NCBI RefSeq assembly: GCF_017302975.1
Contig: NZ_JAFIMT010000003.1
Origin: Corallococcus exiguus
Lineage (GTDB): Bacteria; Myxococcota; Myxococcia; Myxococcales; Myxococcaceae
Direction: 5' to 3' (one strand)
Length of the DNA: 64,000 nucleotides
A model generated the notes under the pieces. It did no database searches. It was not told the origin of the DNA and saw only the letters and a program-made list of their open reading frames with translations. Position 1 is the stretch's first letter; each line of letters opens with the position of its first letter. Positions 29,444 to 46,447 of the stretch are shown one piece after another. The position numbers and the translations under genes were made by a program.

Positions 29444-29461
29444 CCGTAAGGGGCTTTCCGC

Positions 29462-29863: not shown

Positions 29864-29996
29864 GATGGCGGACGTGATGGGTGACGGATGTGCACCCGCG
29901 GCGCACGCCCCTCCCCACGACGTCCATCCTAGAATCTTTTGCCACCCCGTGGGGCGGCTTCCCCTCCACCAAGGCCCTGCTTGAGCCGCCTGCCGC

Positions 29997-30527: not shown

Positions 30528-30769
30528 GACTGCGTCCTCCCCGAAAAACTGGAACTACGTGAGCCCCTGTTCCATGCGAATCCCCGGCCAACGACGCAAG
30601 GGCTCACGGACCGGCGTGCGTCCTGAGTCCCGTCCACCCGTGGAAGGTGCGTGGCGCGAGCGTCGGCCAGCCGTCGCTTCCCTCCTCCCGGAGCGCCAGA
30701 CGTTCTCGCACGACCCGTGATGTCGGACCCCTCCTCTACCTTCCTCGCAGGTGAGCAAGGAGGCTGCCC

Positions 30770-31075
30770 ATGTTCGACGCCTGTGGAGGTTGTGAGCGCC
30801 GTGGCACCGCCGGAGAGGTGTTCGACTGGTGCGCGCACTGCGAATTGTCCCTGTGTCCCGATTGCCTCGTGCGCGGCTGCTGCGGCAGCGCACCCGCGGA
30901 CTCCGGGCGGGGCGCCCCCAAGGAGCTGCCCGACCCGCCACCTCCCGAGCGCGAAGTCCTCCCGGAGGACTTCGGGGGCCGGTGCTGCACGCACGCCCGC
31001 GCGGTGGCCTGCTCCTGCGCCTTCCACTGGGTCTGCACGCGCCACGGCGACCTGCACGTGGGCACCCACGACTGA
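30770..31075 (+). CDS. small Cys-rich putative zinc-binding protein
   Basis: Near-consensus SD AAGGAGG 8 nt upstream of the ATG. Sixteen Cys in 101 aa, arranged as CxxC...CxxC...CxxC pairs (B-box/zinc-ribbon-like). Confidence 0.6.
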   Translation: MFDACGGCERRGTAGEVFDWCAHCELSLCPDCLVRGCCGSAPADSGRGAPKELPDPPPPEREVLPEDFGGRCCTHARAVACSCAFHWVCTRHGDLHVGTHD

Positions 31076-31162
31076 GGGCGTTGACACACGGGCGGCCTGT
31101 CCACGAGGTTTCCGCCTGCTTTCAGGCATTCCCGCCCGGACACAGCACGGAGCACGAACACC

Positions 31163-31555
31163 ATGGGTCTCGCCGAACGGTCGGAAATGGCCGCGTTCAA
31201 GAAGGACACCTTCGACGCGAAGGTGGCGGAGCTGAAGGAGGCCGCGGCGGGCGCGGACATCCAGGTGACGCTGGACGAGGCGAGCTTCAGCACCGTGGCC
31301 GCCATCCAGATGCTCTCCAACGGCGTCTTCGACCGGCTCATCGACGACATGAAGTCCGTCTGCGGCGACGCCATCGGAAAGCAGGCCGTCCGGGAAGGCA
31401 TCCAGACGTTGCACATCGTCCACAAGGACGCGCCGGGCTTCACGCTGGAGCTGACGGACGGCACGCTCACCCTGCGCGCGAAGGTGGACGGCTCCCTCGG
31501 CGAGGACCTGCCGGGCTACGGCCAGTACCGGGCCTTCCTGCTGAAGAAGCTGTAG
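31163..31555 (+). CDS. hypothetical protein
   Basis: ATG at 31163. Lys/Asp/Glu-rich protein-like composition, clearly different from GC-driven shadow ORFs. Followed by a hairpin. Confidence 0.6.
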   Translation: MGLAERSEMAAFKKDTFDAKVAELKEAAAGADIQVTLDEASFSTVAAIQMLSNGVFDRLIDDMKSVCGDAIGKQAVREGIQTLHIVHKDAPGFTLELTDGTLTLRAKVDGSLGEDLPGYGQYRAFLLKKL

Positions 31556-31575
31556 GCCCCGCACGGCCTCACCGA

Positions 31576-31608
31576 CCGGAGGGCCGCTTTGTCAGCGGTG
31601 TCCTCCGG
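31576..31608. terminator. imperfect GC-rich hairpin between convergent genes
   Basis: The outer stem ccggagg / cctccgg plus the inner stem gccgct / agcggt close a 5-nt loop, with a 2-nt bulge. Starts about 20 nt after the stop of the 31163..31555 gene. Confidence 0.35.
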
Positions 31609-31628: not shown

Positions 31629-34600
31629 TCAGGGCACGTCCAGCACGACGCCCTGCCCCGGGACGGCCATCACCCAGCGGACGACGTCGGGCTTGCCGCC
31701 GCAGGTGACGCGCACCTCGAACTCGCGCCCCGCGGGCATCTGGTTGGACAGGGGCGTCTGGCCCTCCAGCACCTGCGAGCCCAGCGCCACGCGGCAGCCC
31801 TGGGCACCGGTGATGCTGAGCATGCCCCGGGCCTCCGCCTGGGGCGGGGCGTCCGCGAGCGTGCGCAGGTCGATGTGCTCCGACTTCGGCACCTTGCCGA
31901 AGCGGTGCAGCTTGCCGTCCACGGCCGTGGAGATGAGCCAGCCGGTGTTGCCTTCGGGCAGGCCCTGGCTCGCATCCAGCAGGACGCCGGACACGTAGAC
32001 GCGCTCGCCCTCCTGGGCGTTGCGCACCTCCACGCCGCCCTTGGGCAGCAGGAACACCAGCGCGAGCCCCGCGAGCACCAGGCCCACGCCGCCCACGATG
32101 AGCCCCTTGCGCTGACCGGGCGTCATCCCCTTCCCCGTCGCTTCGGCGGCGGGCGCTGAAGCCGCGGGGGAGACCGCGTGGACTGGTGGGGCCGGCGGCG
32201 CGGCCACGGGGGCCGCCGGAGGCCGCGCGGGCGGAGCCACGGGAGCGGACACGGGCGGAGCATGCGGGGCAGCCACGTGCGGCGGCGGCGCGGCCACGGG
32301 AGGGTGTCCCCCATAGGCCGCGTGGGAGCCGGTCGGCGGCGGCGCATGGTGCCCCAGCGGCGGCTGCGGGGCGCTTCCCTGCTGCGCGTGGGCAGCCCCG
32401 TATTGCGCGTGGGTGCCCCCATGCGACGGGGGCGCTGCCACGGGGTGCGGCTGCGGAGCCGCGGTCAGGGGGGCGACGGAGGGCACCGCCACCGACGGAC
32501 GCGCGGGCGCCTGCGGCGGAGGCCCCACGCGCGTGGGCACGTTGGCGGACGCCGCGGGGCGCACCGCGGTGGGCGGCGGCAGCGGCGAGGCGGGCGGAGG
32601 CGCTGCCGGGCGCGACGGACGGGGGGCGGCGGCCACGGGCGGTGCCACCGGAGGCGCGGCGGCCACGGGCGGCCCGTTGACGGAGACGACCTCGGTGCCG
32701 CGCTCGGCGGGCTCCGGCGGGGAGGCCACCGGGGGCGGCTCCATCCGGGGCATGCTGCCGGAACCGCCGCGCACGGGCGGCCGGGACAGGTCCGAAGGGG
32801 CCCGCATGTCGCTGCCCGAGCCCGTGCCCACGTTGCGCGAGTGCGAGCCCGTGCCCGGCATCAGCGCCCGGGGGTTGGAGCCCGTGCCCGGGCCGGCGAT
32901 GGACGACGGCGCGTACTCGGAGAGCCGGTCACCCAGCGCCTCCTTGAAGAACTGCGCCACCGACGCGGGCGACGAGGACAGCCGGTGGTGCGCGATGACG
33001 GCTTCAATCTCCTCGCGCATCGCCGCCGCGGAGGGCGTGCGCCGCGCCGGGTCCTTCACCAGCGCGCGCAGGATGAGGTCCGACACGTCCTGCGGGATGT
33101 GGGGCCGCAGCTGCGAGGGCACCGGCGCGGGCTCGCGCACGATGGCCGCGAGCGTGGCCGCGTCATGGTCCCTGCGGAACGGCAGCTGGCCGGTGAGCAG
33201 CTCGAAGAGCACCACGCCCAGCGCGAACACGTCGTTGCGCCAGTCCAGCGGGCGGCCGCTGGCGGCCTCCGGGGAGAGGTACGAAATCTTCCCCTTGATG
33301 ACGCCCGCCTGCGTGTGCTCCTCGCCCTGCACCTTGGCGATGCCGAAGTCCGACAGCTTGATGGCGCCGTCCAGCGACACCAGCACGTTGTGGGGGCTGA
33401 CGTCGCGGTGCACCACCGGGTGCGCCGTGCCGGAAGGGTCCACGTAGCTGTGCGCGTAGTGCAGGCCCGCGGCCACCTCCGCCACGATGCGCAGCGCGTG
33501 CTCCAGCGGCAGCGCCATGCCCTTGCGGCGCAGCTCCGTGAGCAGGCGCTTCAGGTCCGGGCCGCGCACGTACTCCATCAGGATGTACGCCACGCCGTCC
33601 GTCACGCCCACGTCGAAGGTCTGCACGACGTTGGGGTGCGTGAGGCGCGCGTTGGCGCGGGCCTCCGCGAAGAGCATGTCGACGAACTCAGGATTCTCAG
33701 CGAACTGCGCGAGAATCTTCTTCATCACCACGAACTTCTCGAAGCCCTTCACGCCCTGCTGCTTGGCGAGAAACACTTCCGCCATGCCGCCCTGCCCCAG
33801 CCGGCGGATGATCTGCAACCGCGCGCCGCTGGTGTGCGTGTCCGTGGCTGACGAGCCCCGGGCGCCGGGGTCCGTGTTGGTGGAGCCGAAGAGGTACTGG
33901 CTGAGCGCGCGCTGCTCCAGCGCCTCGATGTCCTCCAGCGGCTTGTCCGTGAGCGGCGTGCGCGCGAGCAGCCCCTGGAACTGCGCGAGCGCCGGGGCCC
34001 GGGCGTTGCCGCCGCAGACGGGGCACACGCGCTCCATGGTGCCCTTGGCGCGCAGGACTTCCAGGTACTCGGAGGTCTGGATGCGCTGGTGGGTGACCTG
34101 GCCGCAGTTGCGGCAGTCGCACGGCAACCACAGCGTGGCCAGCTTCGCGGGCAGCGTCTTGGTGGACTTCGCCAGCACGGCCAGCAGCGGCGGCGGCACG
34201 CGGCAGAGCACCACCTGGGCGCCCTGCGCCGCCACCTCCAGCACCTGTTCGATGCGCGGCAGCGCTTCCTGCTCCACCACGCTCACGTGGCAGCAGTCGA
34301 ACGCGACACGCCCCTCCAGGCCGGACGCCAGCCGGCGCACGTTGAGGTCGCCCTTGAGCGTGCTGGCCAGGGTGATGAAGGTGATGTCGTCCTGGACGAT
34401 CTTCAGGTGCGACGCGAGCTCGGACGGCTCGGACGGGATGCCGGAGCGCAGGTAGCGCAGCACCGCGGGATCCACCGCGGAGAACTGCTGGCGGCGCGCG
34501 AAGTCGAAGAACTCCGTGGGCTCGTCCGCGAACTCCAGCGGCTGGGAGCACACCGGGCACTGGTGCGGCGGGGCCCCGCCCTGCTCCAGCACCTTCGCCT

Positions 34601-34976
34601 CCTCCACCAGGCGGACCAGCCGCAGCCGGTCCTCCTTGCAGAAGCGGCACGTGTACGGCGCCAACAGGGAGAGCACGCGCGCGACGCCCGCGAAGCCCTC
34701 CACCATGTTGAGCTGATCCACCACCACCGGCGGCGCGTTGACGACGTACAGCCCCGACACGCCCTGCGGCGGGTGGCCGGCGAACTCGATCCACCGGCGC
34801 ACGCCGAAGGAGCTGATCCGCTCCACCAGGCCCAGGTCCACCACCACCAGGCCCTGGATGCCCTTGGAGGCTGGCGAGAGGGGGAAGGTTTCGTCGATCA
34901 CCCCGGCCACGCGCACGTGGGTCAGACTGCCCACGCGCAGGGAGGTGATGCTGGCATTGGAAGTTTGGCTCTCCAC
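31629..34976 (-). CDS. Ser/Thr protein kinase (Hanks type): two N-terminal STAS-like domains each followed by a Cys4 zinc ribbon, then kinase domain, Pro/Ala-rich linker, one TM helix and a C-terminal extracytoplasmic domain
   Basis: Kinase subdomains GQGGMAEVFLAKQ, VMK, HRDVSPHNVLV, DFGIA and SPE. Zinc ribbons CRFC..CPVC and CDCRNC..CPVC. TM helix LIVGGVGLVLAGLALVFLL. Start assigned to a GTG, which I place at about 34976 with an uncertainty of roughly 1 nt. That GTG is preceded by GAGGG and lies 4 nt after the stop of the upstream gene. The track start at 35057 would overlap the upstream gene by about 77 nt. Confidence 0.85.
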   Translation of the reverse strand: MESQTSNASITSLRVGSLTHVRVAGVIDETFPLSPASKGIQGLVVVDLGLVERISSFGVRRWIEFAGHPPQGVSGLYVVNAPPVVVDQLNMVEGFAGVARVLSLLAPYTCRFCKEDRLRLVRLVEEAKVLEQGGAPPHQCPVCSQPLEFADEPTEFFDFARRQQFSAVDPAVLRYLRSGIPSEPSELASHLKIVQDDITFITLASTLKGDLNVRRLASGLEGRVAFDCCHVSVVEQEALPRIEQVLEVAAQGAQVVLCRVPPPLLAVLAKSTKTLPAKLATLWLPCDCRNCGQVTHQRIQTSEYLEVLRAKGTMERVCPVCGGNARAPALAQFQGLLARTPLTDKPLEDIEALEQRALSQYLFGSTNTDPGARGSSATDTHTSGARLQIIRRLGQGGMAEVFLAKQQGVKGFEKFVVMKKILAQFAENPEFVDMLFAEARANARLTHPNVVQTFDVGVTDGVAYILMEYVRGPDLKRLLTELRRKGMALPLEHALRIVAEVAAGLHYAHSYVDPSGTAHPVVHRDVSPHNVLVSLDGAIKLSDFGIAKVQGEEHTQAGVIKGKISYLSPEAASGRPLDWRNDVFALGVVLFELLTGQLPFRRDHDAATLAAIVREPAPVPSQLRPHIPQDVSDLILRALVKDPARRTPSAAAMREEIEAVIAHHRLSSSPASVAQFFKEALGDRLSEYAPSSIAGPGTGSNPRALMPGTGSHSRNVGTGSGSDMRAPSDLSRPPVRGGSGSMPRMEPPPVASPPEPAERGTEVVSVNGPPVAAAPPVAPPVAAAPRPSRPAAPPPASPLPPPTAVRPAASANVPTRVGPPPQAPARPSVAVPSVAPLTAAPQPHPVAAPPSHGGTHAQYGAAHAQQGSAPQPPLGHHAPPPTGSHAAYGGHPPVAAPPPHVAAPHAPPVSAPVAPPARPPAAPVAAPPAPPVHAVSPAASAPAAEATGKGMTPGQRKGLIVGGVGLVLAGLALVFLLPKGGVEVRNAQEGERVYVSGVLLDASQGLPEGNTGWLISTAVDGKLHRFGKVPKSEHIDLRTLADAPPQAEARGMLSITGAQGCRVALGSQVLEGQTPLSNQMPAGREFEVRVTCGGKPDVVRWVMAVPGQGVVLDVP

Positions 34977-34980
34977 CCGC

Positions 34981-35823
34981 CTACCCTCGTTCCAGACTGA
35001 ACAGCAGCGACTTGGGCTGCGAGGCCCGGCGGCGAGCGTCGCCCAGGTCCACGCCACACGCGAACTGCGTGCGCTTTCCCGGAGTCACCCGCACCGCTAC
35101 CACGTCGCTGTGCTCCAGGATGCGCCGCAGACCCAGGCCCGCGCCACCACCCGAAGCATCCACCTGCGCCTTCTCACCCCAGGCCTTCACCACCCGCACC
35201 AGCGGTGACACCGACAGGCGGCCGAAGCGATCCGTCGCCTCCAGCCACGCCCGGCCGTCCGCCACCGCCCACGACACCAGGCAACGGTCTTCATCCGCCA
35301 CCGACTGCACCTGGCCGCGCCGGTGGGCGTACTTCGGCTCGCCGCTTCCGTCCACTGGCGCATCGAGCAGCGCGTTCACGCCAATCTCATGGACGACATC
35401 CGCCACCCGGCTGGCCGCGCCCTTGGAGCCGCCAGCCTGGAGGACGGCCTCGGCCGCGCGCTCGCCCACGGCCGTCACCTCCGCCACGCTGCCCAGCCAC
35501 GCCACGGACGTGGCGGCCTCCTGGGGGATCATGGGCTCGCCGCGCAGGAGCGCGCTCAGCAGCCGCGCCTCCCAGGCGGACGGCTGGCCGCCCTCGCGGG
35601 TGGCCAGCAGCAGCGCCGGGGGACGGCGCTCCAGGAGCGCGGCGTGGGCGGGAGTGAACCGCCCGTCGAACAGCACCAGCTGCGGCGCCGCGTCGTCACC
35701 GCGCCCCAACAACAGGCCGTCCCGGGCCAGCACTCCGGAGGCCTTCTCCAGCGCCTCCGGCGTGAGCGTCGTGTCCGGCGTCAACTTCAGGGGAGCATCC
35801 TTCACGGCGGCGACGGTATCCAA
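34981..35823 (-). CDS. GHKL/HATPase_c-type ATP-binding protein resembling anti-sigma-factor serine kinases (RsbW/SpoIIAB-like)
   Basis: The C-terminal half carries an N-box-like VHEIGVNALLDA, a G1-like DRFGR and a G2-like GGGAGLGLRRILE. Starts 8 nt after the TonB receptor stop. Its stop lies 4 nt before the kinase GTG, and the kinase SD sits inside its last codons. Confidence 0.6.
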   Translation of the reverse strand: MDTVAAVKDAPLKLTPDTTLTPEALEKASGVLARDGLLLGRGDDAAPQLVLFDGRFTPAHAALLERRPPALLLATREGGQPSAWEARLLSALLRGEPMIPQEAATSVAWLGSVAEVTAVGERAAEAVLQAGGSKGAASRVADVVHEIGVNALLDAPVDGSGEPKYAHRRGQVQSVADEDRCLVSWAVADGRAWLEATDRFGRLSVSPLVRVVKAWGEKAQVDASGGGAGLGLRRILEHSDVVAVRVTPGKRTQFACGVDLGDARRRASQPKSLLFSLERG

Positions 35824-35831
35824 ACAGCGCC

Positions 35832-38375
35832 CTAATAATGGAGTCGAACTTCTGTGAAGACACCCAGCGGCGGTGCGGGGAAGCCGTGGGACTCCTCGTA
35901 CTTCGCGTTGAAGAGGTTCGTGCCCAGCAGTGACACCGCCACGCGCTCGTGGACGTTGAAGCCCACACGCGCGGTCGCGGTGATGTAACTGGGCAGCTTC
36001 ACGCGGGTGGTGGTGCCGGCGTTCTCGTCCACCACGAAGCCCGGATCATACCGGGCGCCCACGAACAGGCCGTAGAGCTCCACGAAGGCGAACTTGCCGA
36101 TGTTGGTGCGGCCGCGCAGGTAGACGCGGTGGCTGGGCGCGTAGTCCAGCGGGTAGCCGGACCCGCCGCCCACCGGCAGCGCCTGGGCGTCCAGGAACTG
36201 GTAGGCCACGTCGAAGGACGAGTTGAGGGACGGCACCTGCGCCGCCGCTTCCGCCTCGAAGCCCGCCACGCGCGCGTCGCCCAGGTTCTTGAACTGGGAC
36301 GTGGAGCCGAAGAGGAGCTCCTGATTGATGAAGTTGCGGGCGCGGTTGTAGAAGCCCGTGCCCGTCAGGCGCACCCTGCGGTCCAGCGGCCAGAAGTCCA
36401 CCGCCGCCTCCACCGTGTCCAGCGTCTCCGCGCGAAGGGACGGGTTGCCCAACAGCGTCGCGGCGTACATCTGCTGGTTGATGGCCAGCTCCGCCAGCGT
36501 GGGCGCGCGGAAGGCGCGGCCGTAGTTGGTGCGCAGCGTGAGCAGCTCCGGGATGGCATGGAACACGACGCTGGCGCGCGGGGACACCTGATCCGTCTTC
36601 GCCTCCCAGACCTTGGCGGGGATCTGGTAGTTGTCGTAGCGAGCGCCCGCGCCCACCACCAGCCGGTCCGTGATGCGGTACTCCGCGTCCACGAAGCCGC
36701 CCAGGATGGTCTGCTGGGTGTCGTCCAGGGTCAGGCCGGGCAGGATGTTCTGGTTGTTCACCTGGTCGGCCTTCACGTCGCCGCCGACGGTGACGGAGAG
36801 CTTGTCCAGGGAGAACAGCGCGCGCGCCTCACCGCCCAGGCGGCTGCGCTTGCCCAGCGTGTCCTCCAGGGCGCCGGTGATTTCATTCTCCAGCGTCACG
36901 TTGCGGCGCTTGAAGAAGGCGTAGGCCTGGGCGAACACGCGCACGTGGTCCGTCACCTGCTGATCCAGCTGCAGGGCGGCGTTCAGGTTCTGGACGTGCT
37001 CGTTGTCCTGCGCGGTGTAGTGGCAGCGGCCGCAGTTGCCCACGGTGGAGATGTTCTGACCGCCGGGCCGGCCGATGTTGCCATCCGTGAAGTCCGCGTC
37101 CAGCGCGAGGGGGCCCACGCGGACCTTGCCGTTCACCTGGTGGACCAGCGAGTCCTCGTTGGTGTCCGTCTGGTTCAGCTGCGGGTTGTTGAAGAGCTGC
37201 GGGCCGTCCGAGCCGAAGCCGTAGTAGCCGAGCAGCGCCTCCACCGGGCCGCCGCGGCCGGCGACGTTGGTCTGCAGGCGCCAGGTCTTGTCCTGGCCCG
37301 CGAGGATGCGCGCGTCGGCGCCCACGTTCTGGCCCTTGGCGATGAGGTCCGCGGGCTGGCGCTCGATGATGTTGATGACGCCGCTGAAGGCGTTGGAGCC
37401 GTAGAGCGACGAGCCCGGGCCGCGGATGACCTCCACCTGCTTCAGGTTGGTGAGCGGCGTCGTCTCATCCGCGTAGAACTGGCCCGTCCAGGGGTCCGTC
37501 AGCGGACGGCCGTCCTTGAGGAGCAGCAGGCGGTTGGACAGGTAGTTGGAGCCCAGGCCGCGCGCGCTCACCGCCGCCTTGCGCATGGAGCCCCGGCGGC
37601 ACTCCATGCCGGGGAAGTACTGGATGGCCTCGCAGAGCGAGAACTGGCCGGTGCCTTCCAGTTCCTCCGCGGGAATCCAGGACACCGTGAGGGGCACGTC
37701 GGAGATGCGCTGGCTGCGCTTGGACGCCGTGGTGACGACGGCCTCGCTCAGCGCCCGGTTGATGTTCTGCTCCAGGTCGTCGCCACCGCCCAGGTCCGGG
37801 CCGTCCAGGCCGGAGAGGCTGGAGGGCGGCGGCAGCGCGCGGTCGGTGGTGGGCTCCGTGAAGGGCGCGCGGTCCGGGACGTTGTCCGCCGTGCGCGGCT
37901 GCGACGACGGCAGCATCGCGCCGGTCCCCAGCGCCGGCGCGGGCGGCGGGTTGGACGGGATGTCCGACGTCAGCGGCCCGTCATACGGCGACGGCGAGGC
38001 CACGGGCAGCGGATCCGAAACGGACGGACCCGGGCCGGCCATGGGGGCGGGAGGCGTGGGCGGCGGCTCGGTGGCGAGCGCCGGCTCCTGAGGCGAGACG
38101 GGCTCGTCCCCGGGAACGTGCTCCACGTCCGTCGGAGGGGGCTGGGCCTTCGCGCCCCGGCGCGTCTTCGCCGTGCGCGGAGGCTTGGCGCCGGGCGTGG
38201 CGGCCTTGGCACCCGGCGTCGTGGCCTTGGCGCCCGGCGTGGTGGCCGCGCGCTTGCGGGCGGCCTTGGTCCGCGTCTTGGGGGCGGGCTCCTGGGCCTC
38301 CTGGGCCTGGGCAGTCTCCACCGCGAAAAGGGACAGTGCGCAGACCACCAGGGTCAGGCACGCGCGCGCGCCCAT
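35832..38375 (-). CDS. TonB-dependent outer-membrane receptor with a ~190-aa Pro/Ala/Lys-rich N-terminal extension
   Basis: Signal peptide MGARACLTLVVCALSLFAVETAQA (alternative ATG at 38435). Plug-domain motifs (DVPLTVSWI, RGPGSSLYGSNAFSGVINI). 22-strand barrel with a C-terminal aromatic end (...FTEVRLHY). Confidence 0.85.
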   Translation of the reverse strand: MGARACLTLVVCALSLFAVETAQAQEAQEPAPKTRTKAARKRAATTPGAKATTPGAKAATPGAKPPRTAKTRRGAKAQPPPTDVEHVPGDEPVSPQEPALATEPPPTPPAPMAGPGPSVSDPLPVASPSPYDGPLTSDIPSNPPPAPALGTGAMLPSSQPRTADNVPDRAPFTEPTTDRALPPPSSLSGLDGPDLGGGDDLEQNINRALSEAVVTTASKRSQRISDVPLTVSWIPAEELEGTGQFSLCEAIQYFPGMECRRGSMRKAAVSARGLGSNYLSNRLLLLKDGRPLTDPWTGQFYADETTPLTNLKQVEVIRGPGSSLYGSNAFSGVINIIERQPADLIAKGQNVGADARILAGQDKTWRLQTNVAGRGGPVEALLGYYGFGSDGPQLFNNPQLNQTDTNEDSLVHQVNGKVRVGPLALDADFTDGNIGRPGGQNISTVGNCGRCHYTAQDNEHVQNLNAALQLDQQVTDHVRVFAQAYAFFKRRNVTLENEITGALEDTLGKRSRLGGEARALFSLDKLSVTVGGDVKADQVNNQNILPGLTLDDTQQTILGGFVDAEYRITDRLVVGAGARYDNYQIPAKVWEAKTDQVSPRASVVFHAIPELLTLRTNYGRAFRAPTLAELAINQQMYAATLLGNPSLRAETLDTVEAAVDFWPLDRRVRLTGTGFYNRARNFINQELLFGSTSQFKNLGDARVAGFEAEAAAQVPSLNSSFDVAYQFLDAQALPVGGGSGYPLDYAPSHRVYLRGRTNIGKFAFVELYGLFVGARYDPGFVVDENAGTTTRVKLPSYITATARVGFNVHERVAVSLLGTNLFNAKYEESHGFPAPPLGVFTEVRLHY
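38184..38246. repeat. 3 x 21-bp perfect-period tandem repeat inside the TonB receptor N-terminal extension
   Basis: Units cttggcgccgggcgtggcggc / cttggcacccggcgtcgtggc / cttggcgcccggcgtggtggc, encoding (A/T)TPGAK x3 on the minus strand. Degenerate copies flank it. Confidence 0.7.
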
Positions 38376-38670
38376 CCGACCGGCAAACCCCTTCACCACG
38401 TTGGTGCGCGATCCACCGTACTCAGTCGAGTCCATCGTTCTCAATTCCACGAGGGGAAGCAGGGGGTGTCCGCGGTCGTTGCGCCAGGATCAGAGCCGGT
38501 GTGACTGGCAATCGTTCTCAGGGGCGAGTTTCCACCCCTGAACGGTGGCGTTCCGCTCGACTTCTCAAATTACCGCAATAACTCGCCTTAGGCCAAGTCA
38601 TGGCTGTCGATCCCGGTGAAACACGCGCACGGCGGCGAAAACACCGTGCGCGGCTCAGCCCACGCCGCAA

Positions 38671-39597
38671 TCAGTCATCCGGCTGTTCGGCGGAGACAGC
38701 CAGGTCGTCCACGAATGGCGGCAGGGCAGGACCCAGCGACTCGGATTGGACGAGCACGGGGGTCTCCACCCGAAGGTCGGGCGAGTCCGCGAGGACGGGC
38801 TGACGGCGCGGGGGGCCCTGGGTGACGAGCTTGCGGAAGTCCTCGAACTCGCGGCCCTGGATGCGGGCGAAGGCGTCGAACGGGGCGACCGCACCCACGG
38901 AGGACAGGGACTGGGACAACGCGTCTCCCCCGCCCTTCAGGTCCACCAGCACGGCGCCCGGCACCCGGCTGCTCTTGAAGAGCACCCGCATGTCCTTGGG
39001 CACGTGCGCCACCGGCACGAGCGCGGCCTCCGCGCCCTTGGCCTCCAGCATCTTCACCGCCGACTCCACGTTGGGCACCGGCACCAGCTTGAAGTGCTTC
39101 TGGGCATCCAGGTCACCGCCCAGCACGACGTGGGAGACGAACTTCGGATCCGCGGAGCCCGCGCCCTTGACCAGCGCCATGCGCTTGCCGGCCAGGTCCT
39201 TCACGGTGCCCTTCTGGAGGGAGATGATGGCCCAGCGCTGCTGCGTCTCACCGGCGCGCGGCGCGTACGCCACCGGCTCCGCCTTGGAGCCCAGCTGCAC
39301 CGCGGCCCAGCCGTCCACCACGGCGAAGTCGATCTGCCCCTCCCCCACCGCCTTGGAGAAGTCCTCGTAGCGGCCAAAGCTCTTGGCGCCAACGGGGCGG
39401 CCCAGGCTGGCCTCCAGCTTCTGGGCGAGCGCCTCCGCGTACTGGAAGCGCTCCTGACCGTCCGACAGCGTGGTGGCGAGGAACACGCCCAGCGTGGCCT
39501 TCTTCGGAGCGGCGGCCGCGGGGCTGGCGACGGAAACGGCGAACAGCACGGCGGCGAGCAGGAGGCTCCCCCGCGCGACAAGGGATGGCGTCTTCAC
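38671..39597 (-). CDS. PhnD/SsuA/transferrin-type periplasmic substrate-binding protein (phosphonate/phosphite-binding-like)
   Basis: Signal peptide MKTPSLVARGSLLLAAVLFAVSVASPAAAA. The sequence (LGVFLATTLSDGQERFQYAEALAQKLEASLGRPV...) has a class II binding-protein fold pattern. Its start overlaps the TPR gene stop (ATGA). Confidence 0.75.
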   Translation of the reverse strand: MKTPSLVARGSLLLAAVLFAVSVASPAAAAPKKATLGVFLATTLSDGQERFQYAEALAQKLEASLGRPVGAKSFGRYEDFSKAVGEGQIDFAVVDGWAAVQLGSKAEPVAYAPRAGETQQRWAIISLQKGTVKDLAGKRMALVKGAGSADPKFVSHVVLGGDLDAQKHFKLVPVPNVESAVKMLEAKGAEAALVPVAHVPKDMRVLFKSSRVPGAVLVDLKGGGDALSQSLSSVGAVAPFDAFARIQGREFEDFRKLVTQGPPRRQPVLADSPDLRVETPVLVQSESLGPALPPFVDDLAVSAEQPDD

Positions 39598-42107
39598 GGC
39601 GTCTCCTCCGCGACCCCGGTGGCCGGCGCGACGCCCTGCGCGTCACCCAGTCCATAGAGGCCCTGCAGGCGGTCCTTCCATTCCCGTACCTGGGCAGCGC
39701 GAGGACCCGCGCCAGCGGCCAGGTAGCGGCGCCAGGCGTCCACGGCCTCGGCGGGTTCATGCCGTCGCTCCTGCGCGTCGATGCCCAGGTTGAGCGAGGC
39801 GACAGGTACGGCGGACTCCAGGCGCTTCCACGTCGCGAGCGCCGAGGTGCTGTCGCCCTGGCGCCAGTCCACGCACGCCAGGTTGTGCTGCACCAGCGCG
39901 TCGTCCGGCGTCGCGGTGAGCGCGGCCTTCAGCGCCTTCTCCGACGCCTTCATGTTGCCGGAGGCGTACGCGAGCGCCGCCTCACGACGCAGCAGCGCGC
40001 CGGTGAGGTTGCCCATCCACTTGGGCTGACCGGGCATGGGCTTCTTCTGCGCGGCGGTGAGCAGCTTGCGCGAGGGCGCGACCTTGCCCTGGCGGTAGAG
40101 CACCCACGCGTCCGCGAGCGTGCGCGTGTTGGGCCACGCCCATTCCGGCGCGGGCGTGAGGGAGCGCTTGAGGCCGGCGGTGGCCTCCGCGAACTTCCCT
40201 TCCTCCGCGCGCGTGAGCGCCCGGGCGAAGGCGGCCAGCTTCGCCAGGTCCCCGCGCTTGCCAGTGCCCAGGCGGTCCACCGCGTCCAGGTCCCGGTTCG
40301 CCGCGGCGGCGTCGCCCACCTCCAGCTTCGCCAGGGCCCGGCGCACCAGCACGCGAGGCAGGTTCGCCTCCGCCACCTTCGCGGCCGTCTTGGAGGGCCC
40401 CGCGTCCGTCAGCCGCTGCACGGCTGCGTCCACCTGGCCCAGCTCCACCTCCGCGAGCGCGGCGCCCGCGGACGCTTCCGCGCGCTGATCCGGCTCCTGC
40501 GTGGCCTCACCGGACTGGGTGAACGCGGCGAGCGCGGCCTGCGCGTCGCCACCGCCCAGCCGGGCGTAGCCGAGCAGCAGGTGCTCGCGCCAGGTCGCAC
40601 CCGGCAGCGTCACCGCGCCCTCCATCACCTTGCGGGCCTCCGCGAACTGGTGGCTGTCCAGGAGCGCCGCGCCCAGCCGGCGGGCCATGGGCACGGAGCG
40701 GTCCAGGTCATACGCGCGGCGCAGGTCGCGCACGGCGTCTTCCAGGCGCTGGGTCCCGGCGCGATCTCTCGCGCGGTGGGCCAGGGCCCGGGCCAGCCAC
40801 TGCTTCGCGCCGGGGTGGTTGGGCTCCACCTGGAGCGCGCTGCCGTAGTCCTCGATGGCCTGGTCCCACTGGCCGGTGGCGAAGTGATCCGCGCCCAGCA
40901 GCACGTGGCCCAGCGCCTGGCGCGGGGCCATCTCCACCACGCGCCGGTGCACCTCCACCGCGCGCTGGTAACGGCCGGCACGGCGGTTGACGGAGCCCAG
41001 CGTCGCCCACAGCTCCAGGCTGCCGCCACCCGACTTCACGGCGGACTCCAGGAACTGGATGGCCTCCTCGTGGCGCGCCTGCGCCTGGAGCGCCTTGCCC
41101 ACGGCGATCTGTCCCAGCAGCAGGCCCGGCTGCAGCTCCAGCACCTTGCGGAACTCCGCTTCCGCCTGCGCGGGCTGCTTCTGCGCGAGCCGCACGTCAC
41201 CCATCAAGAGGTGCGCGGCGGGCGTGGAGCCCAGCTTCATCAGGGCGGTGGCCTGGAGGTCCGCGCGCGGCACGTCGCCCGCGGCCAGGTACAGGCGCGC
41301 GAGGCGCTCCTTCGGCTCCGCCACCTGCGGGAACTTCGTCACCAGCCGCTCCAGGAGCGCGCGGGACTCCGGCACGTGGCCTTCCATCTCCAGCACGGCG
41401 GCCAGACCGATCTGCGCCGTCGCGGACTCGGCCCGGCCGGCCTGCGCCTTCTCGAACGAGGCGCGCGCGGCGGCAGCGTCCCGGCGGATGAGGTGCGCCT
41501 TGCCCAAGAGCTCATGGATCTGGAAGTCGTTGCCCGCGAGCTTCTCCGGACGCAGCATCAGGTAGCGCTGCAGCCGCGTCACAGCCCGGTTCCCATCCTG
41601 GACGTACAGGTAGTAGCTGGCCAGGTAGTAGTGGACGATGAGGTGGTCCTGCTGATCCGCGGCGGCCACCTGCTCCAGCACCGGCACCGCCTCCTGGAAG
41701 CGGCGCAGCTTGAAGTACGCGGTGCCCAGCGGGTACGCGAGCGACAGCTCCTGCGGGTTCTGCGCGAACACCGGCGCAAGGCGCGTGGCCGTGCGCTGGA
41801 AGTCCTGGAGCGCGTTGGCGGCGCTGCCCAGGCCCGCGGCGGCGAACACGGACTGCGGCTCCTGCGTGAGCGCCTGCTCGAAGAGCTGGAGCGCCTTGGT
41901 GAACTTCTCCTGCGCCTCCTTCTTGTCACCCTTGGAGGCGGCGGCGTTGGCGGACACGAGGGCCTGCTCCCCCTGCTCCGTCATGCGCTGCGCCTCGGTG
42001 GCGGGCGGCGGGCGGAACTGGGCGAGCGCCGCCGGTGGGCCGGCCAGGGTGGCCAGCAGGGCGAGCGCGGTGGAGACGCGGCGCGGGGAACGGTGGAATG
42101 AGCGCAT
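39594..42107 (-). CDS. secreted TPR-repeat protein
   Basis: Signal peptide MRSFHRSPRRVSTALALLATLAGPPAALA from the ATG at 42107. More than 15 TPR-like helical hairpins (repeated AxxxLGxAxxxxGxxxxAxxxFxxAL patterns). Confidence 0.8.
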   Translation of the reverse strand: MRSFHRSPRRVSTALALLATLAGPPAALAQFRPPPATEAQRMTEQGEQALVSANAAASKGDKKEAQEKFTKALQLFEQALTQEPQSVFAAAGLGSAANALQDFQRTATRLAPVFAQNPQELSLAYPLGTAYFKLRRFQEAVPVLEQVAAADQQDHLIVHYYLASYYLYVQDGNRAVTRLQRYLMLRPEKLAGNDFQIHELLGKAHLIRRDAAAARASFEKAQAGRAESATAQIGLAAVLEMEGHVPESRALLERLVTKFPQVAEPKERLARLYLAAGDVPRADLQATALMKLGSTPAAHLLMGDVRLAQKQPAQAEAEFRKVLELQPGLLLGQIAVGKALQAQARHEEAIQFLESAVKSGGGSLELWATLGSVNRRAGRYQRAVEVHRRVVEMAPRQALGHVLLGADHFATGQWDQAIEDYGSALQVEPNHPGAKQWLARALAHRARDRAGTQRLEDAVRDLRRAYDLDRSVPMARRLGAALLDSHQFAEARKVMEGAVTLPGATWREHLLLGYARLGGGDAQAALAAFTQSGEATQEPDQRAEASAGAALAEVELGQVDAAVQRLTDAGPSKTAAKVAEANLPRVLVRRALAKLEVGDAAAANRDLDAVDRLGTGKRGDLAKLAAFARALTRAEEGKFAEATAGLKRSLTPAPEWAWPNTRTLADAWVLYRQGKVAPSRKLLTAAQKKPMPGQPKWMGNLTGALLRREAALAYASGNMKASEKALKAALTATPDDALVQHNLACVDWRQGDSTSALATWKRLESAVPVASLNLGIDAQERRHEPAEAVDAWRRYLAAGAGPRAAQVREWKDRLQGLYGLGDAQGVAPATGVAEETP

Positions 42108-42115
42108 GCGGTTCG

Positions 42116-43708
42116 TCAAGGCGAGGGGGCGGGGCTGAATTCGGCGACGATGACGGTGATGTCGTCGCGCTGGGGCTGGCCGGCGCTGTACGCGCGCACG
42201 TCCGCGAGGAGCGCGTCGCGAAGGGCGTCGGCGGGGAGGTGGGCGTGGGTCTGGAGCGCCGCGGCCAGTCGCTGCGTGCCGTAGAGCCGGTTGGCGCCGT
42301 CGCGCGCCTCGGTGAGGCCGTCCGTGTACCAGACGATGATGTCGCCGGGGCTCAGCACCGCCTGGCGCGACGTGAACTGCGAGGCGACGTTCGCGCCCAG
42401 CAGCGGACCACGCGCGGGCAGCGAGGCCATCTGCCGCGTGTTCCGGTTGTAGATGGCCGCCGCCGGGTGGGCGCCCGCCGCGTAGTCAATCTGGCCGCTG
42501 TACACGTCGATGACCGCGAGCGCGCTGGACATCTGGTGCTCGCCGCGGCCCACGTTGGCCAGCGTCACGTTGAGCGCGGTGATCAGCATCTGCGCGTGCA
42601 CCTGCGACGGCTCGCGCAGCGTCATGGCGGAGGCGAAGCCGCTGGTGGCGCTGGTGGCGACCAGCGACGTGGACAGACCGTGGCCCGTCACGTCTCCGAT
42701 GCCAATCACCACGCGCCGATCGTCCAGCGCGGCGCGGAACCACCAGTCGCCGCCGCACGCGTCCGCGGGCACCACCAGCCCGGCCAGCCGCAGCGGCCCC
42801 ACCGTCACGGCCTCGCGGCCCGGCAGGAGCGTCTCCTGCACCGTGCGCGCGAGCGACACCTCGCGCTCCAGCTGCGCCTTGGCGCGCACGTCCTCCAGCA
42901 GGACCTTGATTCGCTCCGCCATGTGGTTGAACACCACGCCCAGCGTCGTCACCTCGCGGCCCGCGCCCGGCGCCGTGCCCGCGCGAGCACCCAGGTCACC
43001 GGCGGCCAGCTGCATCACGCGGTGGGTGAGCACGCCCAGCGGCTTGGTGATGCGGCGGCTCTGGAACGCGGCCAGCACGCTGGCCAGGACGACGAAGCCC
43101 ACGCCCAGCCCGACGATGCGCAGCGTGTTGGCGCGCACCGCGGCACGGTTGGTCTCTTCCAGCTCGTGCAGCTGCTTCTGCAGGTCCTCCAGCGAGTAGC
43201 TGATGACGACCACGCCCTTGCCGGCCTGCGAGCCGTAGTCGAGCGGCTCCTGGAACTCGAAGACGGGCTGGCCCTGGAAGAAGGCGCTGGCCCAGCGGCG
43301 CTCCGCGGTGCGGCCTCCGGAGGACTCGCCCAGCTTGGCGGACGGGTCGCTGTCCGCGACGAGCTGCCCATCCGCGTCGAACATCTGCACGCGCAGGATG
43401 TTGCGGTTGTCCGAGATGATGGAGCGCGCCACTTCCGTGAGGAACGCGTAGTTGTTGTCCCGCAGGCTGGTGGCGGAGGTGAGCGCCAGCGTGTGGCTCA
43501 CCGTCTGGCCCAGTTCGCGCGCCTGTGACTGGAGCCGCTGCGTGAAGCGATCCGACGTCGCGGTGAGCTGCGCCTCCGTCGTCTTCGCGGACAGCGCGGC
43601 CAGCAGGCCCACGATGATGATGACCAGCGCGCCCGTGGTGAGCAGCAGCAGCTGATCCAACCGGAGCCCGCGGATGGCCGCCACGTTGGGCAGCTCGCCG
43701 GCCTCCAT
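42116..43708 (-). CDS. membrane-anchored HAMP plus PP2C-type serine phosphatase (RsbU/SpoIIE family)
   Basis: TM helix LLLLTTGALVIIIVGLLAALSA, a ~160-aa extracytoplasmic region, a second TM helix VGLGVGFVVLASVLAAF, then HAMP, then PP2C motifs (GGDWWF, IGIGDVTGHGLSTSL, DGLTEA, DDITV). ATG at 43708; an upstream GTG at 43978 would add a Pro-rich leader. Its 3' end overlaps the TPR gene start. Confidence 0.8.
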   Translation of the reverse strand: MEAGELPNVAAIRGLRLDQLLLLTTGALVIIIVGLLAALSAKTTEAQLTATSDRFTQRLQSQARELGQTVSHTLALTSATSLRDNNYAFLTEVARSIISDNRNILRVQMFDADGQLVADSDPSAKLGESSGGRTAERRWASAFFQGQPVFEFQEPLDYGSQAGKGVVVISYSLEDLQKQLHELEETNRAAVRANTLRIVGLGVGFVVLASVLAAFQSRRITKPLGVLTHRVMQLAAGDLGARAGTAPGAGREVTTLGVVFNHMAERIKVLLEDVRAKAQLEREVSLARTVQETLLPGREAVTVGPLRLAGLVVPADACGGDWWFRAALDDRRVVIGIGDVTGHGLSTSLVATSATSGFASAMTLREPSQVHAQMLITALNVTLANVGRGEHQMSSALAVIDVYSGQIDYAAGAHPAAAIYNRNTRQMASLPARGPLLGANVASQFTSRQAVLSPGDIIVWYTDGLTEARDGANRLYGTQRLAAALQTHAHLPADALRDALLADVRAYSAGQPQRDDITVIVAEFSPAPSP

Positions 43709-44261
43709 GGGCGCGATGACCGTGCTCGTGGGCTCCGTCGGCGGCAGCCCCACCGAGCCCGTCAGCCGGGTGGCCGTGTTCTCCCCGCGCAGCCCGGTGA
43801 GCTCCCGGGAATGGGTGCCGGTGTACTCCGGAGGAGGAGGCGGGGTGCCGGGCGCAGCATCGGATGCATCAGGTGATTCGGGCACGGGGTCGAGGCGCGT
43901 GTTCGTACGGGACAAAGGCACACCTGGGGGAGCCCGCGTCGGAAGTACGCGGTCGGAGCGGGGCGGACTGTATCTCACTTCCTGATTGACGCGAGGAGTC
44001 CACCTGTCAGGCGATTCCTCGCGGGCGCCCCCTCCCCCGCCCCCCCAACGGCCGTGCGATCAGCCCGGACCCGGAGCGTCCAACCGCCTCCTGGAAGCAG
44101 CACGTCACGAGGGCATGGATGAGTTCCGCTCATTGCCGCGTCGCGCTACCCGGGGGCCGAAAGGTGATGGCGAACACCCGTGACATCAGGGTCCTTGAGT
44201 CGGGAGGCCGCGTTCGGAGTATAGGGGCGTCCCTTTCTTTCCCCTTCGAGGTCGTCCGCCC
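43709..44261. promoter_or_regulatory. divergent intergenic region between the phosphatase gene string and the BCKAD E1 genes
   Basis: A 550-bp non-coding gap that contains a C-rich tract (ccctcccccgccccccc). Promoters are not assignable by eye. Confidence 0.3.
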
Positions 44262-45269
44262 GTGTCCCGGCCCCGGTTGATCAAAGAGAACTCCGCGCCG
44301 CTCTCCCTGCCCCGAGAGCAGCTCATCCGCATCCATGACCTGATGGTGAAGGCGCGCGTCCTGGAGGAGCGCCTGATCCAGATGTACAAGCAGGGCCACG
44401 GCTACTTCTGGATCGGCGGTCCCGGTGAGGAGGCGTTCAACGTCCCCCTGGGCATGCTGATGAAGGTCGGCGAGGGCCCGGCCTATGACTACCTGCACGC
44501 GCACTACCGCCAGTCCGCGACGCTGCTCGCCATGGGCGAGGAGCCCATCGGGGCGCTGCGGCAGATGAAGAACACGGCCACGGACCCCTACTCCGGCGGC
44601 CGCAACTTCGCGGGCCACTTCAGCCGGCGCTCGAAGAACATCGCGCCTGTCACCTCCCCCATCGAGGTGCAGTACGCCATCGCGCCGGGCACGGCCATGG
44701 CCCAGAAGCGCCACGGCGGCGACGGCATCACCATCGTCACCGGCGGCGACGCGGGCACGGCCGAGGGCGATTTCGCCAGCTGCCTCATCTGGAGCAGCCG
44801 CCCGGCCAACCCGCTCCCCATCCTGATCATCGTCACCAACAACAAGTGGGGCATCAGCACCACTTCGGACGGCCAGCACGGCGAGACGAACATCAGCGAC
44901 CGCGCGCGCGCCTTCAACATCCAGGCGAAGACCATCAACGGCAATGATCCGGTGGAGGCCTACCAGGAGCTCCAGGCCGCGATGGAGTACGTGCGCAAGG
45001 AGCGCAAGCCCTTCTTCATCGAGGCGCGCGTGTCGCGCCTGTACGGGCACTCGTCCGCGTCCGGCGCCAACTTCGTGAACGAGGAGCAGGACTGCCTGCG
45101 CCTGTTCGAGGCGCGGCTGGAGCAGGAAGGCGTCCTCAGCCGCGAGCAGATGGACGAGGCGCGCACCCGGTATTCGGAGGAACTGGCCGCCGCCGCGCGC
45201 ACCGTGCGCGACGAGCCGCAGCCCTCTGGCGACACCATCTGGGAACACATCTACGCGGAGAAGAAATAA
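44262..45269 (+). CDS. branched-chain 2-oxo acid dehydrogenase E1 component, alpha subunit (TPP-dependent)
   Basis: TPP-binding motif GDG..TEGDF...NN.WGIST (GGDAGTAEGDFASCLIW...TNNKWGISTT). The phosphorylation-loop-like YGHSSASGA is present. GTG start at 44262. Arrangement matches the esg-type E1 alpha/beta locus of M. xanthus. Confidence 0.9.
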   Translation: MSRPRLIKENSAPLSLPREQLIRIHDLMVKARVLEERLIQMYKQGHGYFWIGGPGEEAFNVPLGMLMKVGEGPAYDYLHAHYRQSATLLAMGEEPIGALRQMKNTATDPYSGGRNFAGHFSRRSKNIAPVTSPIEVQYAIAPGTAMAQKRHGGDGITIVTGGDAGTAEGDFASCLIWSSRPANPLPILIIVTNNKWGISTTSDGQHGETNISDRARAFNIQAKTINGNDPVEAYQELQAAMEYVRKERKPFFIEARVSRLYGHSSASGANFVNEEQDCLRLFEARLEQEGVLSREQMDEARTRYSEELAAAARTVRDEPQPSGDTIWEHIYAEKK

Positions 45270-45271
45270 CC

Positions 45272-46327: not shown

Positions 46328-46447
46328 GCGCTGGCCCGGGTTTCCGCCTACACCGCAGAAAGACATCCGGGCCGCCGTTCCTCTTTGGAGGCCGGCGGCC
46401 CAGTCGTTAGAATCCCAACTTCCGTGTCCCAGCCCATCGTCCGCACC

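Follow-up and report, generated by a model that had tools for sequence, protein, structure and literature searches.

A putative sigma-less partner switch with a STAS antagonist built into a receptor Hanks kinase in Corallococcus exiguus

Background

In the partner switches of Bacillus (SpoIIE-SpoIIAB-SpoIIAA and RsbU-RsbW-RsbV), a phosphatase of the SpoIIE/PP2C family, a GHKL kinase of the SpoIIAB/RsbW fold and a STAS antagonist with a conserved phosphorylatable serine or threonine are encoded together with a sigma factor or another separate output protein. The present analysis concerns a block of six minus-strand genes (31629-43978) in a 64,000-nt stretch of Corallococcus exiguus contig NZ_JAFIMT010000003.1; the whole stretch is referred to as the window. 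The genes are 1:1 counterparts of Myxococcus xanthus MXAN_4562 to MXAN_4557 and encode, in this order, a receptor phosphatase (PP2C), a secreted TPR protein, a periplasmic substrate-binding protein (PBP), a TonB-dependent receptor (TBDR), a 280-aa GHKL protein named X280 here and a receptor Hanks-type Ser/Thr kinase (STK). The block is read as a sigma-less partner-switching-type phospho-module whose STAS antagonist is built into the receptor Hanks kinase, a reading to which a probability of roughly 55% is given. The identities of the parts are assigned with high confidence.

Compared with the Bacillus switches, the block lacks a sigma factor gene. Its STAS antagonist comes as two copies, each with a four-cysteine zinc ribbon behind it, joined to a transmembrane Hanks kinase in one protein. 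The GHKL protein carries an extra N-terminal alpha/beta domain and escapes the HATPase_c_2 model, and the phosphatase is a receptor with two transmembrane (TM) segments and periplasmic partners.

STAS domains fused to eukaryotic-like kinases have been noted in another myxobacterium, Sorangium cellulosum (Treuner-Lange 2010, PMC2887360), which is the only related remark found in the literature; the paper contains neither MXAN_4558 as a GHKL kinase, nor the STAS-zinc-ribbon tandem of MXAN_4557, nor the six-gene locus. A preliminary description of the window had recognized no described system of this composition, and the literature searches agree. In the SiaABCD system of Pseudomonas aeruginosa (PMC7647112, PMC8457831), the target is SiaC rather than a STAS domain and the output is a separate diguanylate cyclase, whereas the proposed output here is a Hanks kinase fused to the target. 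The window phosphatase scores 86.6 against a SiaA equivalog cut-off of 700, and no GGDEF gene is found in the block or the neighbours scanned. Serine phosphorylation is predicted here, while PMC7647112 describes threonine phosphorylation in the Sia pathway. Rv1364c of M. tuberculosis is a multidomain RsbU-RsbW-STAS fusion; here, STAS resides on a Hanks kinase, the GHKL kinase and phosphatase are separate, and no sigma F-type regulon is implied, in contrast to Rv1364c and the PknD-Rv0516c link. SypE/SypA, HsbR/HsbA, Nostoc Hmp and Anabaena HenR/All4160 share the PP2C/GHKL/STAS triad with a non-sigma output, but their STAS proteins stand alone and act on a separate effector, and no Hanks fusion, TBDR or PBP is involved.

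Orphan periplasmic binding proteins encoded with a membrane sensor are known from LuxP/LuxQ and TorT/TorS, and an outer-membrane TonB-dependent protein encoded with signalling genes is known from FecA/FecR/FecI; both arrangements recur here. The sensor output in this locus is a PP2C phosphatase rather than a histidine kinase, and the TBDR has a disordered low-complexity extension in the place of the STN signalling domain. Neither STN nor sigma/anti-sigma genes of a FecA-type transducer are present among the proteins and neighbours scanned.

Since sigma-less partner switches are already documented, lacking a sigma factor does not by itself make the block new, and since all three folds belong to known families, it is not categorically new either. 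What is new is the tandem STAS-zinc-ribbon on a receptor Hanks kinase, with its strict pairing to a cryptic SpoIIAB-like kinase, how large the mostly unannotated X280-like kinase family is, and the conserved coupling to periplasmic and outer-membrane components. Myxobacteria encode about 100 Hanks-type kinases. The locus offers a concrete circuit proposal (MXAN_4557 to MXAN_4562) in a tractable model, in which a partner switch would control a eukaryotic-like kinase instead of a sigma factor. If true, it would be the first case in which the two major Ser/Thr phosphorylation systems of bacteria are directly connected within a single circuit.

Results and discussion

X280 and its relatives

Sequence-only searches are blind to the relationships of X280 and of the STAS region, and a fold search was therefore needed. 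The AlphaFold2 model of X280 (pLDDT 88.8, pTM 0.88) was compared with the PDB by Foldseek. SpoIIAB is the top match (E 6e-6, TM 0.71-0.77 on the target), followed by RsbW (0.82), UsfX and SiaB. The protein is soluble by hydropathy and consists of an N-terminal alpha/beta domain of ~100 residues, with three to four beta-alpha units, and a Bergerat-fold domain. In an alignment of 40 homologues, down to 41% identity, an N box (E146, N150, A151, D154), a G1 box (D198-x-F200-G201) and a G2 box (GGGAGLG, G225-G231) are invariant, and in order and spacing they agree with the corresponding boxes of the Bergerat fold. By fold and motifs, X280 is a GHKL protein of the SpoIIAB/RsbW fold with intact ATP-binding motifs. 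The preliminary description had called it an RsbW/SpoIIAB-like HATPase_c protein; fold and motifs bear out the likeness, and the domain label is not reproduced by any curated HMM.

The 127 homologues found all belong to Myxococcaceae, Archangiaceae or related metagenome-assembled genomes (MAGs), and all are annotated as hypothetical. They contain no Pfam domain (none is precomputed for any of 120 homologues), and X280 is not placed in the HATPase_c_2 family (PF13581) by the curated model. The X280 profile reaches 2021 representative clusters (50% identity) at E<=1e-3 and 1020 at E<=1e-10, mostly proteins of 310-340 aa. Among ten X280-like members scanned, one attains the Pfam threshold in the X280-like region (HATPase_c_2) and five are without any Pfam match; further distant members give weak HATPase_c or HATPase_c_2 matches. 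One member, P0244, is matched by the X280 profile at ~1e-22 and scores 27.5 bits against the HATPase_c_2 cut-off of 27.4. The sequence link between X280 and HATPase_c_2 is transitive only, through this protein. Partner-switch circuits are probably under-counted in surveys, because HMM libraries mostly leave this SpoIIAB-like family hypothetical. The X280-like GHKL module also occurs fused to PilZ and to a 7TMR-DISM receptor.

The STAS-zinc-ribbon kinase

The motifs GQGGMA, VMKK, HRDVSPHN, DFG and SPE, read from the sequence, mark STK as a Hanks-type kinase. The preliminary description had proposed a transmembrane Ser/Thr kinase with two STAS-like domains at the N-terminus and an extracytoplasmic C-terminal domain. 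The Pkinase match and the single TM segment are in line with this topology, and the STAS domains are recovered as well, although only below threshold in the window's own protein (STAS_2 at E=0.002, under the gathering score, with weak matches in both halves at residues 42-90 and 222-270). The first 385 residues of STK from 31 loci were aligned and each was also scanned singly by HMM. In these orthologues, STAS_2 is matched in 27 of 31 (best E 1.9e-8) and STAS in 23 of 31 (best 4.2e-8).

The fold leads to the same families. In the Foldseek search with the AlphaFold2 model of the N-terminus (pLDDT 77), the best matches are the SpoIIAA chains 1tid_D, 1thn_B, 1til_B and 1th8_B, together with a Haliangium anti-sigma antagonist, RsbV and RsfB (probability 1.0, TM 0.52-0.67 on the target). 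The SpoIIAA chains come from the same co-crystals whose SpoIIAB chains match X280 (1tid, 1thn, 1til, 1th8). A profile of the N-terminus run against PDB sequences returns generic zinc fingers only and nothing meaningful. The two halves are homologous to each other, with a profile-profile (hhalign) probability of 99.2% (E 3.7e-19, 137 columns), and four invariant cysteines follow each STAS domain, eight in all.

STAS1 contains the invariant motif VDLG-x-VERISSFGVR, including S56-F57-G58. The motif aligns with the corresponding SpoIIAA sequence, LSFMDSSGLG, which puts Ser56 at the position of SpoIIAA Ser58; in the STAS1 model, Ser56 is located at a helix N-terminus. STAS1 thus qualifies as an antagonist domain with a conserved phosphorylatable residue. 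In STAS2, the residues aligned to the serine site read E-Q/P-E-A, and this domain is not phosphorylatable at that site because the serines are replaced. The cytoplasmic N-terminus of the kinase is therefore a tandem of STAS plus zinc ribbon, of which STAS1 has the SpoIIAA-type serine motif. The preliminary description would have been refuted by a failure to support HATPase_c in X280 or STAS in this region; its partner-switch idea survives the check and is supported overall.

The receptor phosphatase and its secreted companions

The preliminary description had listed a HAMP-PP2C phosphatase, a secreted TPR protein, a PhnD-like binding protein and a TonB-dependent receptor, all of which are recovered by Pfam. 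The phosphatase provides the third component of a partner switch: SpoIIE is matched at E 2.3e-38 (132.5 bits, cut-off 25) over practically the entire model (1-191/192) and HAMP at E 4.3e-9, and the metal-binding motifs GDVTGHG, YTDG and RDDITV can be read from the sequence. TM segments were assigned by hydropathy, and signal peptides from the N-terminal sequences. A cytoplasmic N-terminus of ~100 aa is followed by TM1 (104-136), a periplasmic region (137-282), TM2 (283-307), HAMP (307-357) and SpoIIE (419-614). The periplasmic region (~145 aa) has weak similarity to dCache_1/sCache_4 and is referred to as Cache-like.

The TPR protein matches many TPR families and has the signal peptide MRSFHRSPRRVSTALALLATLAGPPAALA. 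The PBP has a signal peptide and a Phosphonate-bd match (E 6.7e-11); it scores 22.7 bits against the NCBIfam PhnD equivalog (cut-off 261) and 31.1 against 3A0109s03R (cut-off 112). No ABC permease or ATPase is present among the window neighbours scanned, so that the hallmarks of PhnCDE-type uptake are missing there. The TBDR has a signal peptide, a Plug domain (249-358, E 2.5e-18) and a TonB_dep_Rec_b-barrel domain (456-846, E 1.7e-44). Between its signal peptide and the TonB box/plug lies a Pro/Ala/Lys-rich low-complexity extension of ~200 residues with TPGAK repeats, which is weakly conserved across genera. A Pfam scan of the N-terminal 250 aa yields no domain at E up to 1, hence no STN. The M. 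xanthus counterpart MXAN_4559 was seen in outer-membrane and outer-membrane vesicle (OMV) proteomes (PMC4158809, PMC3222651).

Conservation and rearrangement of the locus

To characterize the genomic context, 60 loci from a genome scan and 6 from contig look-ups (66 in all) were compared, most of them by tblastn only. One of them, L001 of C. coralloides KYC2213, has an X280 that is 97% identical to that of the window. The colinear order PP2C-TPR-PBP-TBDR-X280 is found in 39 loci from Corallococcus, Myxococcus, Pyxidicoccus, Archangium, Vitiosangium, Hyalangium and Citreicoccus, and most other loci are cut by contig ends yet consistent with it. Where the available sequence is long enough (62 loci), the gene immediately downstream of X280 is that of the STAS-kinase in 58. 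Of the other four, L012 is a frameshifted assembly, L064 and L065 hold the two copies of a fusion protein, and in L066 the adjacency does emerge from a profile search, an X280-like gene being followed by two STAS-zinc-ribbon kinases.

In distant relatives (X280 ~42-44% identical, tblastn), the block is rearranged yet stays together. PP2C-TPR-PBP is divergent from TBDR-X280-STK in L057 and L062, and from X280-STK without TBDR in L061. In L055, a HAMP-SpoIIE gene immediately precedes X280-STK, and TPR, PBP and TBDR are missing. L047 (4553-8740) and L053 (4306-8529) encode hybrids of ~1400 aa with the domain order HAMP-HisKA-HATPase_c-REC x4-SpoIIE upstream of X280 and the STAS-kinase; here the same switch is under the control of a phosphorelay. 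Directly upstream of X280, L047 and L045 encode another kind of binding protein (SBP_bac_8). Furthermore, a clean natural STAS-zinc-ribbon::X280 fusion (P0157) occurs on two independent metagenome contigs. A candidate fusion of the opposite order, X280::STAS (P0128), is full of frameshift-like garbage and was rejected as an assembly artefact.

Judged from the adjacency and the rearranged loci, X280 and the STAS-kinase make up the deep core, in most cases with a SpoIIE phosphatase gene close by. The TPR and PBP genes stay linked to that of the phosphatase, the TBDR is facultative, being absent from several variant loci, and in some lineages TPR, PBP and TBDR are swapped for other inputs. With the association conserved across 60+ loci, co-location by chance is ruled out. 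Loss of co-location in related genomes had been named beforehand as a possible refutation; instead, the six-gene association is strongly conserved and survives rearrangement. Two side observations concern variant loci. L047 also holds a paralogous 763-aa STAS-zinc-ribbon kinase (1310-3601), and Metallophos (calcineurin-like) phosphoesterase genes adjoin X280-STK in L054 (4802-5638), which has no SpoIIE gene in the available flank, and in L061 (14818-15570).

Proposed mechanism

In the proposed mechanism, X280 would bind STAS1 and phosphorylate Ser56, and the membrane phosphatase would strip the phosphate once its periplasmic Cache-like/HAMP sensor is triggered; such a kinase/phosphatase cycle at Ser56 is considered fairly likely. 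The phospho-state of STAS1, and hence X280 binding, would set how active the fused Hanks kinase is or which oligomeric state it adopts, and the kinase would then phosphorylate downstream Ser/Thr targets. We infer that the partner switch gates the Hanks kinase, and the odds that this kinase is the output are put at about even. STAS2, with acidic residues in place of the serines, is probably a constitutive docking or dimerisation copy.

On the input side, the TPR protein and the orphan PBP, both always encoded with the phosphatase, could present a periplasmic ligand to it in a LuxP/LuxQ- or TorT/TorS-like manner. The TBDR, where present, would carry the ligand across the outer membrane, and the kinase's own extracytoplasmic C-terminal domain may serve as a second input. 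This periplasmic route is tentative, with the balance tilting slightly against it.

The proposal is supported by the X280-STK adjacency, the P0157 fusion, the presence of a sole SpoIIE phosphatase in M. xanthus and joint expression. In an M. xanthus predation time course, all six orthologues are down together at 6 h (log2FC -0.68 to -1.08) and unchanged at 2 h. MXAN_4562 is the sole SpoIIE-like phosphatase of M. xanthus, the function of which was left open by Treuner-Lange 2010 (PMC2887360).

Several points weigh against it. X280 has no Pfam or NCBIfam match even at permissive thresholds, and its family profile retrieves nothing meaningful from PDB sequences (a VHH at E=1.1); because of these negatives, its kinase activity is predicted from fold and motifs only. 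Its G1 box reads D-x-F-G instead of the canonical D-x-G-x-G, and its additional N-terminal alpha/beta domain could bind another, unlinked partner. On the ligand side, the PhnD similarity of the PBP is weak. L049, L050, L054 and L066 have no SpoIIE gene within the available flank. Since two COG2172 and two COG1366 proteins are encoded elsewhere in M. xanthus (Table S1, PMC2887360), the phosphatase could act on these instead. According to the same table, A. dehalogenans 2CP-C has no COG2172/COG1366 protein, yet one SpoIIE-type phosphatase. Literature searches yielded no precedent for a STAS state controlling Hanks kinase activity, no biochemical or genetic work on any gene of the block and no main-text mention of MXAN_4557 or MXAN_4558; a search for TBDR, PhnD-like and HAMP sensor modules returned nothing relevant.

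Alternative explanations

The output might lie elsewhere. As the closest structural relatives of X280 are true anti-sigma factors, X280 could be an anti-sigma or anti-X factor with an unlinked target, e.g. a group-3 sigma factor or some other regulator, possibly bound via the N-terminal alpha/beta domain, which is conserved and has no assigned partner. The kinase STAS domains would then be a tethered antagonist that titrates X280, and the Hanks kinase a parallel second function. The portability of the X280-like module, with ~2000 representative clusters and other architectures including the PilZ and 7TMR-DISM fusions, fits such a role. However, canonical systems have the sigma gene inside the operon. 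Here, in agreement with the preliminary description, no sigma factor gene is found among 12 neighbouring window ORFs scanned, nor among the annotated neighbours of variant loci except for the housekeeping rpoD-dnaG operon 9 kb off in L061 (most of the 66 loci being compared by tblastn only). The strict X280/STAS-STK adjacency and the STAS::X280 fusion show the STAS-kinase to be the conserved partner, and an unlinked output is regarded as unlikely.

A second explanation bears chiefly on what the signal is and can be reconciled with the proposed switch. The module could be the sensing or regulatory arm of a ribosomal-peptide cluster (LanB-like or PEARL-like), in which TBDR, PBP and TPR handle the modified peptide while phosphatase, X280 and kinase auto-regulate production or immunity. 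Two genes with only a Lant_dehydr_N domain follow the STK stop directly on the same strand in Myxococcus (L029), Archangium (L017) and a divergent MAG (L050). By tblastn, LanB-like genes adjoin the kinase in 22 loci, among them Pyxidicoccus, Vitiosangium, Citreicoccus and the distant L066; for this reason the lantipeptide label is kept as a rival explanation rather than a boundary artefact. An antiSMASH-type annotation puts MXAN_4545-4561 into a lantipeptide region, and MXAN_4556 is co-regulated with MXAN_4557-4562. On the other hand, no LanB-like gene is present in the 64-kb Corallococcus window, the Hyalangium-type loci, L061 or L062, so that the six-gene block is kept in these loci without them. 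Neither a precursor peptide nor a cyclase or elimination domain was identified. STK itself is not a class III/IV synthetase: it scores 73 bits with the LanL model (cut-off 650) and 38 with LanKC (575), in the kinase domain only. Taken together, a peptide cluster has a low probability, similar to that of an unlinked output. If the link holds, it could point to the signal molecule.

The LanB-like regions lie outside the window (L029:13946-20318, L017:14197-20341, L050:10731-15763, L066:1-1694), and in L017 the LanB-like genes are followed by an FAD oxidoreductase gene. The LanB-like genes contain only the glutamylation-type Lant_dehydr_N domain; such genes without an elimination domain recall PEARL-type enzymes. 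An extended picture combines these elements with the proposed switch: a trans-envelope machine in which the GHKL/PP2C switch gates the receptor Hanks kinase via the tandem STAS-zinc-ribbon, with input from the PBP, the TPR protein and, in most genera, the TBDR, possibly sensing a LanB-made modified peptide, and in which X280 founds a large clade mostly missed by Pfam. This picture is put forward with more doubt than the periplasmic route itself.

It is improbable that the Hanks kinase rather than X280 phosphorylates STAS, in cis or in trans, with X280 acting as an ATP-dependent binder or pseudokinase. M. tuberculosis PknD is reported to phosphorylate the STAS protein Rv0516c (PMC1847690); here STAS and kinase share one polypeptide, and the G1 box of X280 is non-canonical. 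Yet all ATP-binding residues of X280 are invariant over the 40 aligned sequences, the acceptor is a SpoIIAA-type serine at a helix N-terminus (the GHKL-kinase site) and not a loop threonine, and the co-occurring phosphatase is of the SpoIIE type, the Hanks-associated PF00481 PP2C not being seen.

A plain, phosphonate-like nutrient-uptake locus beside unrelated signalling genes, suggested by the TBDR and Phosphonate-bd matches, or an anti-phage defence island, suggested by kinase-domain matches to the PADLOC models PD-T4-6 and mad6, is highly improbable, given that synteny is stable across genera, that no ABC permease/ATPase is nearby and the PhnD score is far below its cut-off, and that the PBP follows the phosphatase and TPR genes, not the TBDR, in rearranged loci, the TBDR being dispensable in several lineages. 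The defence island was rejected, as the PADLOC matches are limited to residues ~383-670 of the kinase and none is seen in the remaining five proteins; the NCBIfam scores (MAD6 155 against 460, PglW 73 against 990) likewise do not indicate a defence kinase of the PD-T4-6, MADS or BREX PglW type.

Gene starts, transcription units and neighbouring genes

The features of the block are listed in Table 1. All six genes of the preliminary description exist, with two starts revised. The PP2C start is probably GTG 43978 rather than 43708, and the TBDR start is probably near 38450/38435, not 38375; the longer ORFs are preferred because orthologue conservation begins at their residue 1. The TPR gene starts at TTG 42119 or ATG 42107, its start overlapping the PP2C stop as described before. 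This PP2C/TPR overlap amounts to 4 nt, and the TPR/PBP overlap, also 4 nt, reads GTGA instead of the ATGA given previously. Spacings of 8 nt (TBDR/X280) and 4 nt (X280/STK) are confirmed. As a consequence of the new TBDR start, the PBP-TBDR gap shrinks from 295 nt to ~220-235 nt.

Table 1 Features of the six-gene block in the window
Feature	Position	Strand	Basis or remark
Receptor-type SpoIIE/PP2C phosphatase, 620 aa	42116..43978	-	MXAN_4562 orthologue; Pfam
Secreted TPR-repeat protein, 841 aa	39594..42119	-	MXAN_4561 orthologue; many TPR Pfam families
Orphan periplasmic substrate-binding protein (PBP), PhnD/SsuA-like, 308 aa	38671..39597	-	MXAN_4560 orthologue
PBP-TBDR non-coding gap	38451..38670	-	inter-genus conservation resumes near 38457-38477
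Terminator-like hairpin and T-run	38648-38665	coding strand	6 nt past PBP stop
TonB-dependent receptor (TBDR), 872 aa	35832..38450	-	MXAN_4559 orthologue; signal peptide
TBDR low-complexity extension	residues ~50-230, ~37760-38300	-
X280, cryptic SpoIIAB/RsbW-like GHKL serine kinase (predicted)	34981..35823	-	MXAN_4558 orthologue
X280 N-terminal alpha/beta domain	residues ~10-105, DNA 35509-35796
X280 Bergerat-fold domain	residues ~106-280, DNA 34984-35508
Receptor Hanks-type Ser/Thr kinase (STK), 1115 aa, GTG start	31629..34976	-	MXAN_4557 orthologue
STAS1	residues 8-105, DNA 34662-34955	-	HMM in orthologues and fold
Predicted phospho-acceptor Ser56	DNA 34809-34811	-	motif position
Zinc ribbon 1	C110, C113, C140, C143	-	invariant Cys
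STAS2	residues 190-285, DNA 34122-34409	-	HMM in orthologues, fold and internal duplication
Zinc ribbon 2	C288, C291, C318, C321	-	invariant Cys
Pkinase domain	residues 388-653, DNA 33018-33815	-	Pfam E 1.3e-41, 143 bits
TM segment, after Pro-rich linker	residues 956-984, DNA 32025-32111	-	hydropathy
Extracytoplasmic C-terminal domain	residues 985-1115 (~130 residues)	-	topology

A single transcription unit including the uptake components, as assumed in the preliminary description, is doubtful. The hairpin 6 nt past the PBP stop and the divergent arrangement of the two halves in other loci suggest that the PBP-TBDR gap is probably the boundary between two sub-operons, and that PP2C-TPR-PBP and TBDR-X280-STK are probably separate transcription units. 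No other terminator-like site is found on the block's coding strand (12.9 kb scanned); one site against a shuffle expectation of 4.0 is not above chance, and the position of the hairpin is suggestive only. No sigma-70-like promoter was found in the block by a consensus scan, which is of little value in a myxobacterial genome of 70% GC.

The six genes form a bounded block, since the upstream neighbour (~44199-45269, plus strand), an E1 dehydrogenase gene, is divergent and the downstream neighbour (31085-31555, plus strand) is convergent; both were assigned by third-position GC (GC3) in the window of ~70% GC, and the latter ORF passes the GC3 filter. Minus-strand ORFs at 44130-45287 and 45251-46891 have no Pfam match and are, by GC3, antisense shadows of the plus-strand E1 dehydrogenase genes. 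Two further minus-strand ORFs (30392-31564 and 29462-30178) have no Pfam match and failed the GC3 filter. The kinase gene and the 31085-31555 gene, which converge, are separated by an inverted repeat (31576-31608; CCGGAGG ... CCTCCGG, inner stem CCGC/GCGG) that may terminate transcription in both directions; for want of a T-run, it was passed over by the consensus scan.

The divergent region upstream (44199-46327, plus strand) comprises the alpha and beta genes of a 2-oxoacid dehydrogenase E1, whose M. xanthus counterparts MXAN_4564/4565 are esgA/esgB according to supplement gene names (PMC9548883). In M. xanthus, MXAN_4563 (M50 site-2 protease) lies between the E1 genes and the phosphatase; the window has no room for a counterpart. 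Downstream of the block, the minus strand encodes a 1433-aa adenylate/guanylate cyclase-AAA_16-TPR (STAND-type) protein (25142-29461) and a SLOG cluster4 protein (29997-30554), a pair that is likewise kept downstream in Hyalangium-type loci. Further minus-strand genes encode a stand-alone PilZ-domain protein (46977-47435) and a 648-aa CotH-kinase-family protein with a chitobiase/hexosaminidase C-terminal-like domain (50714-52660).

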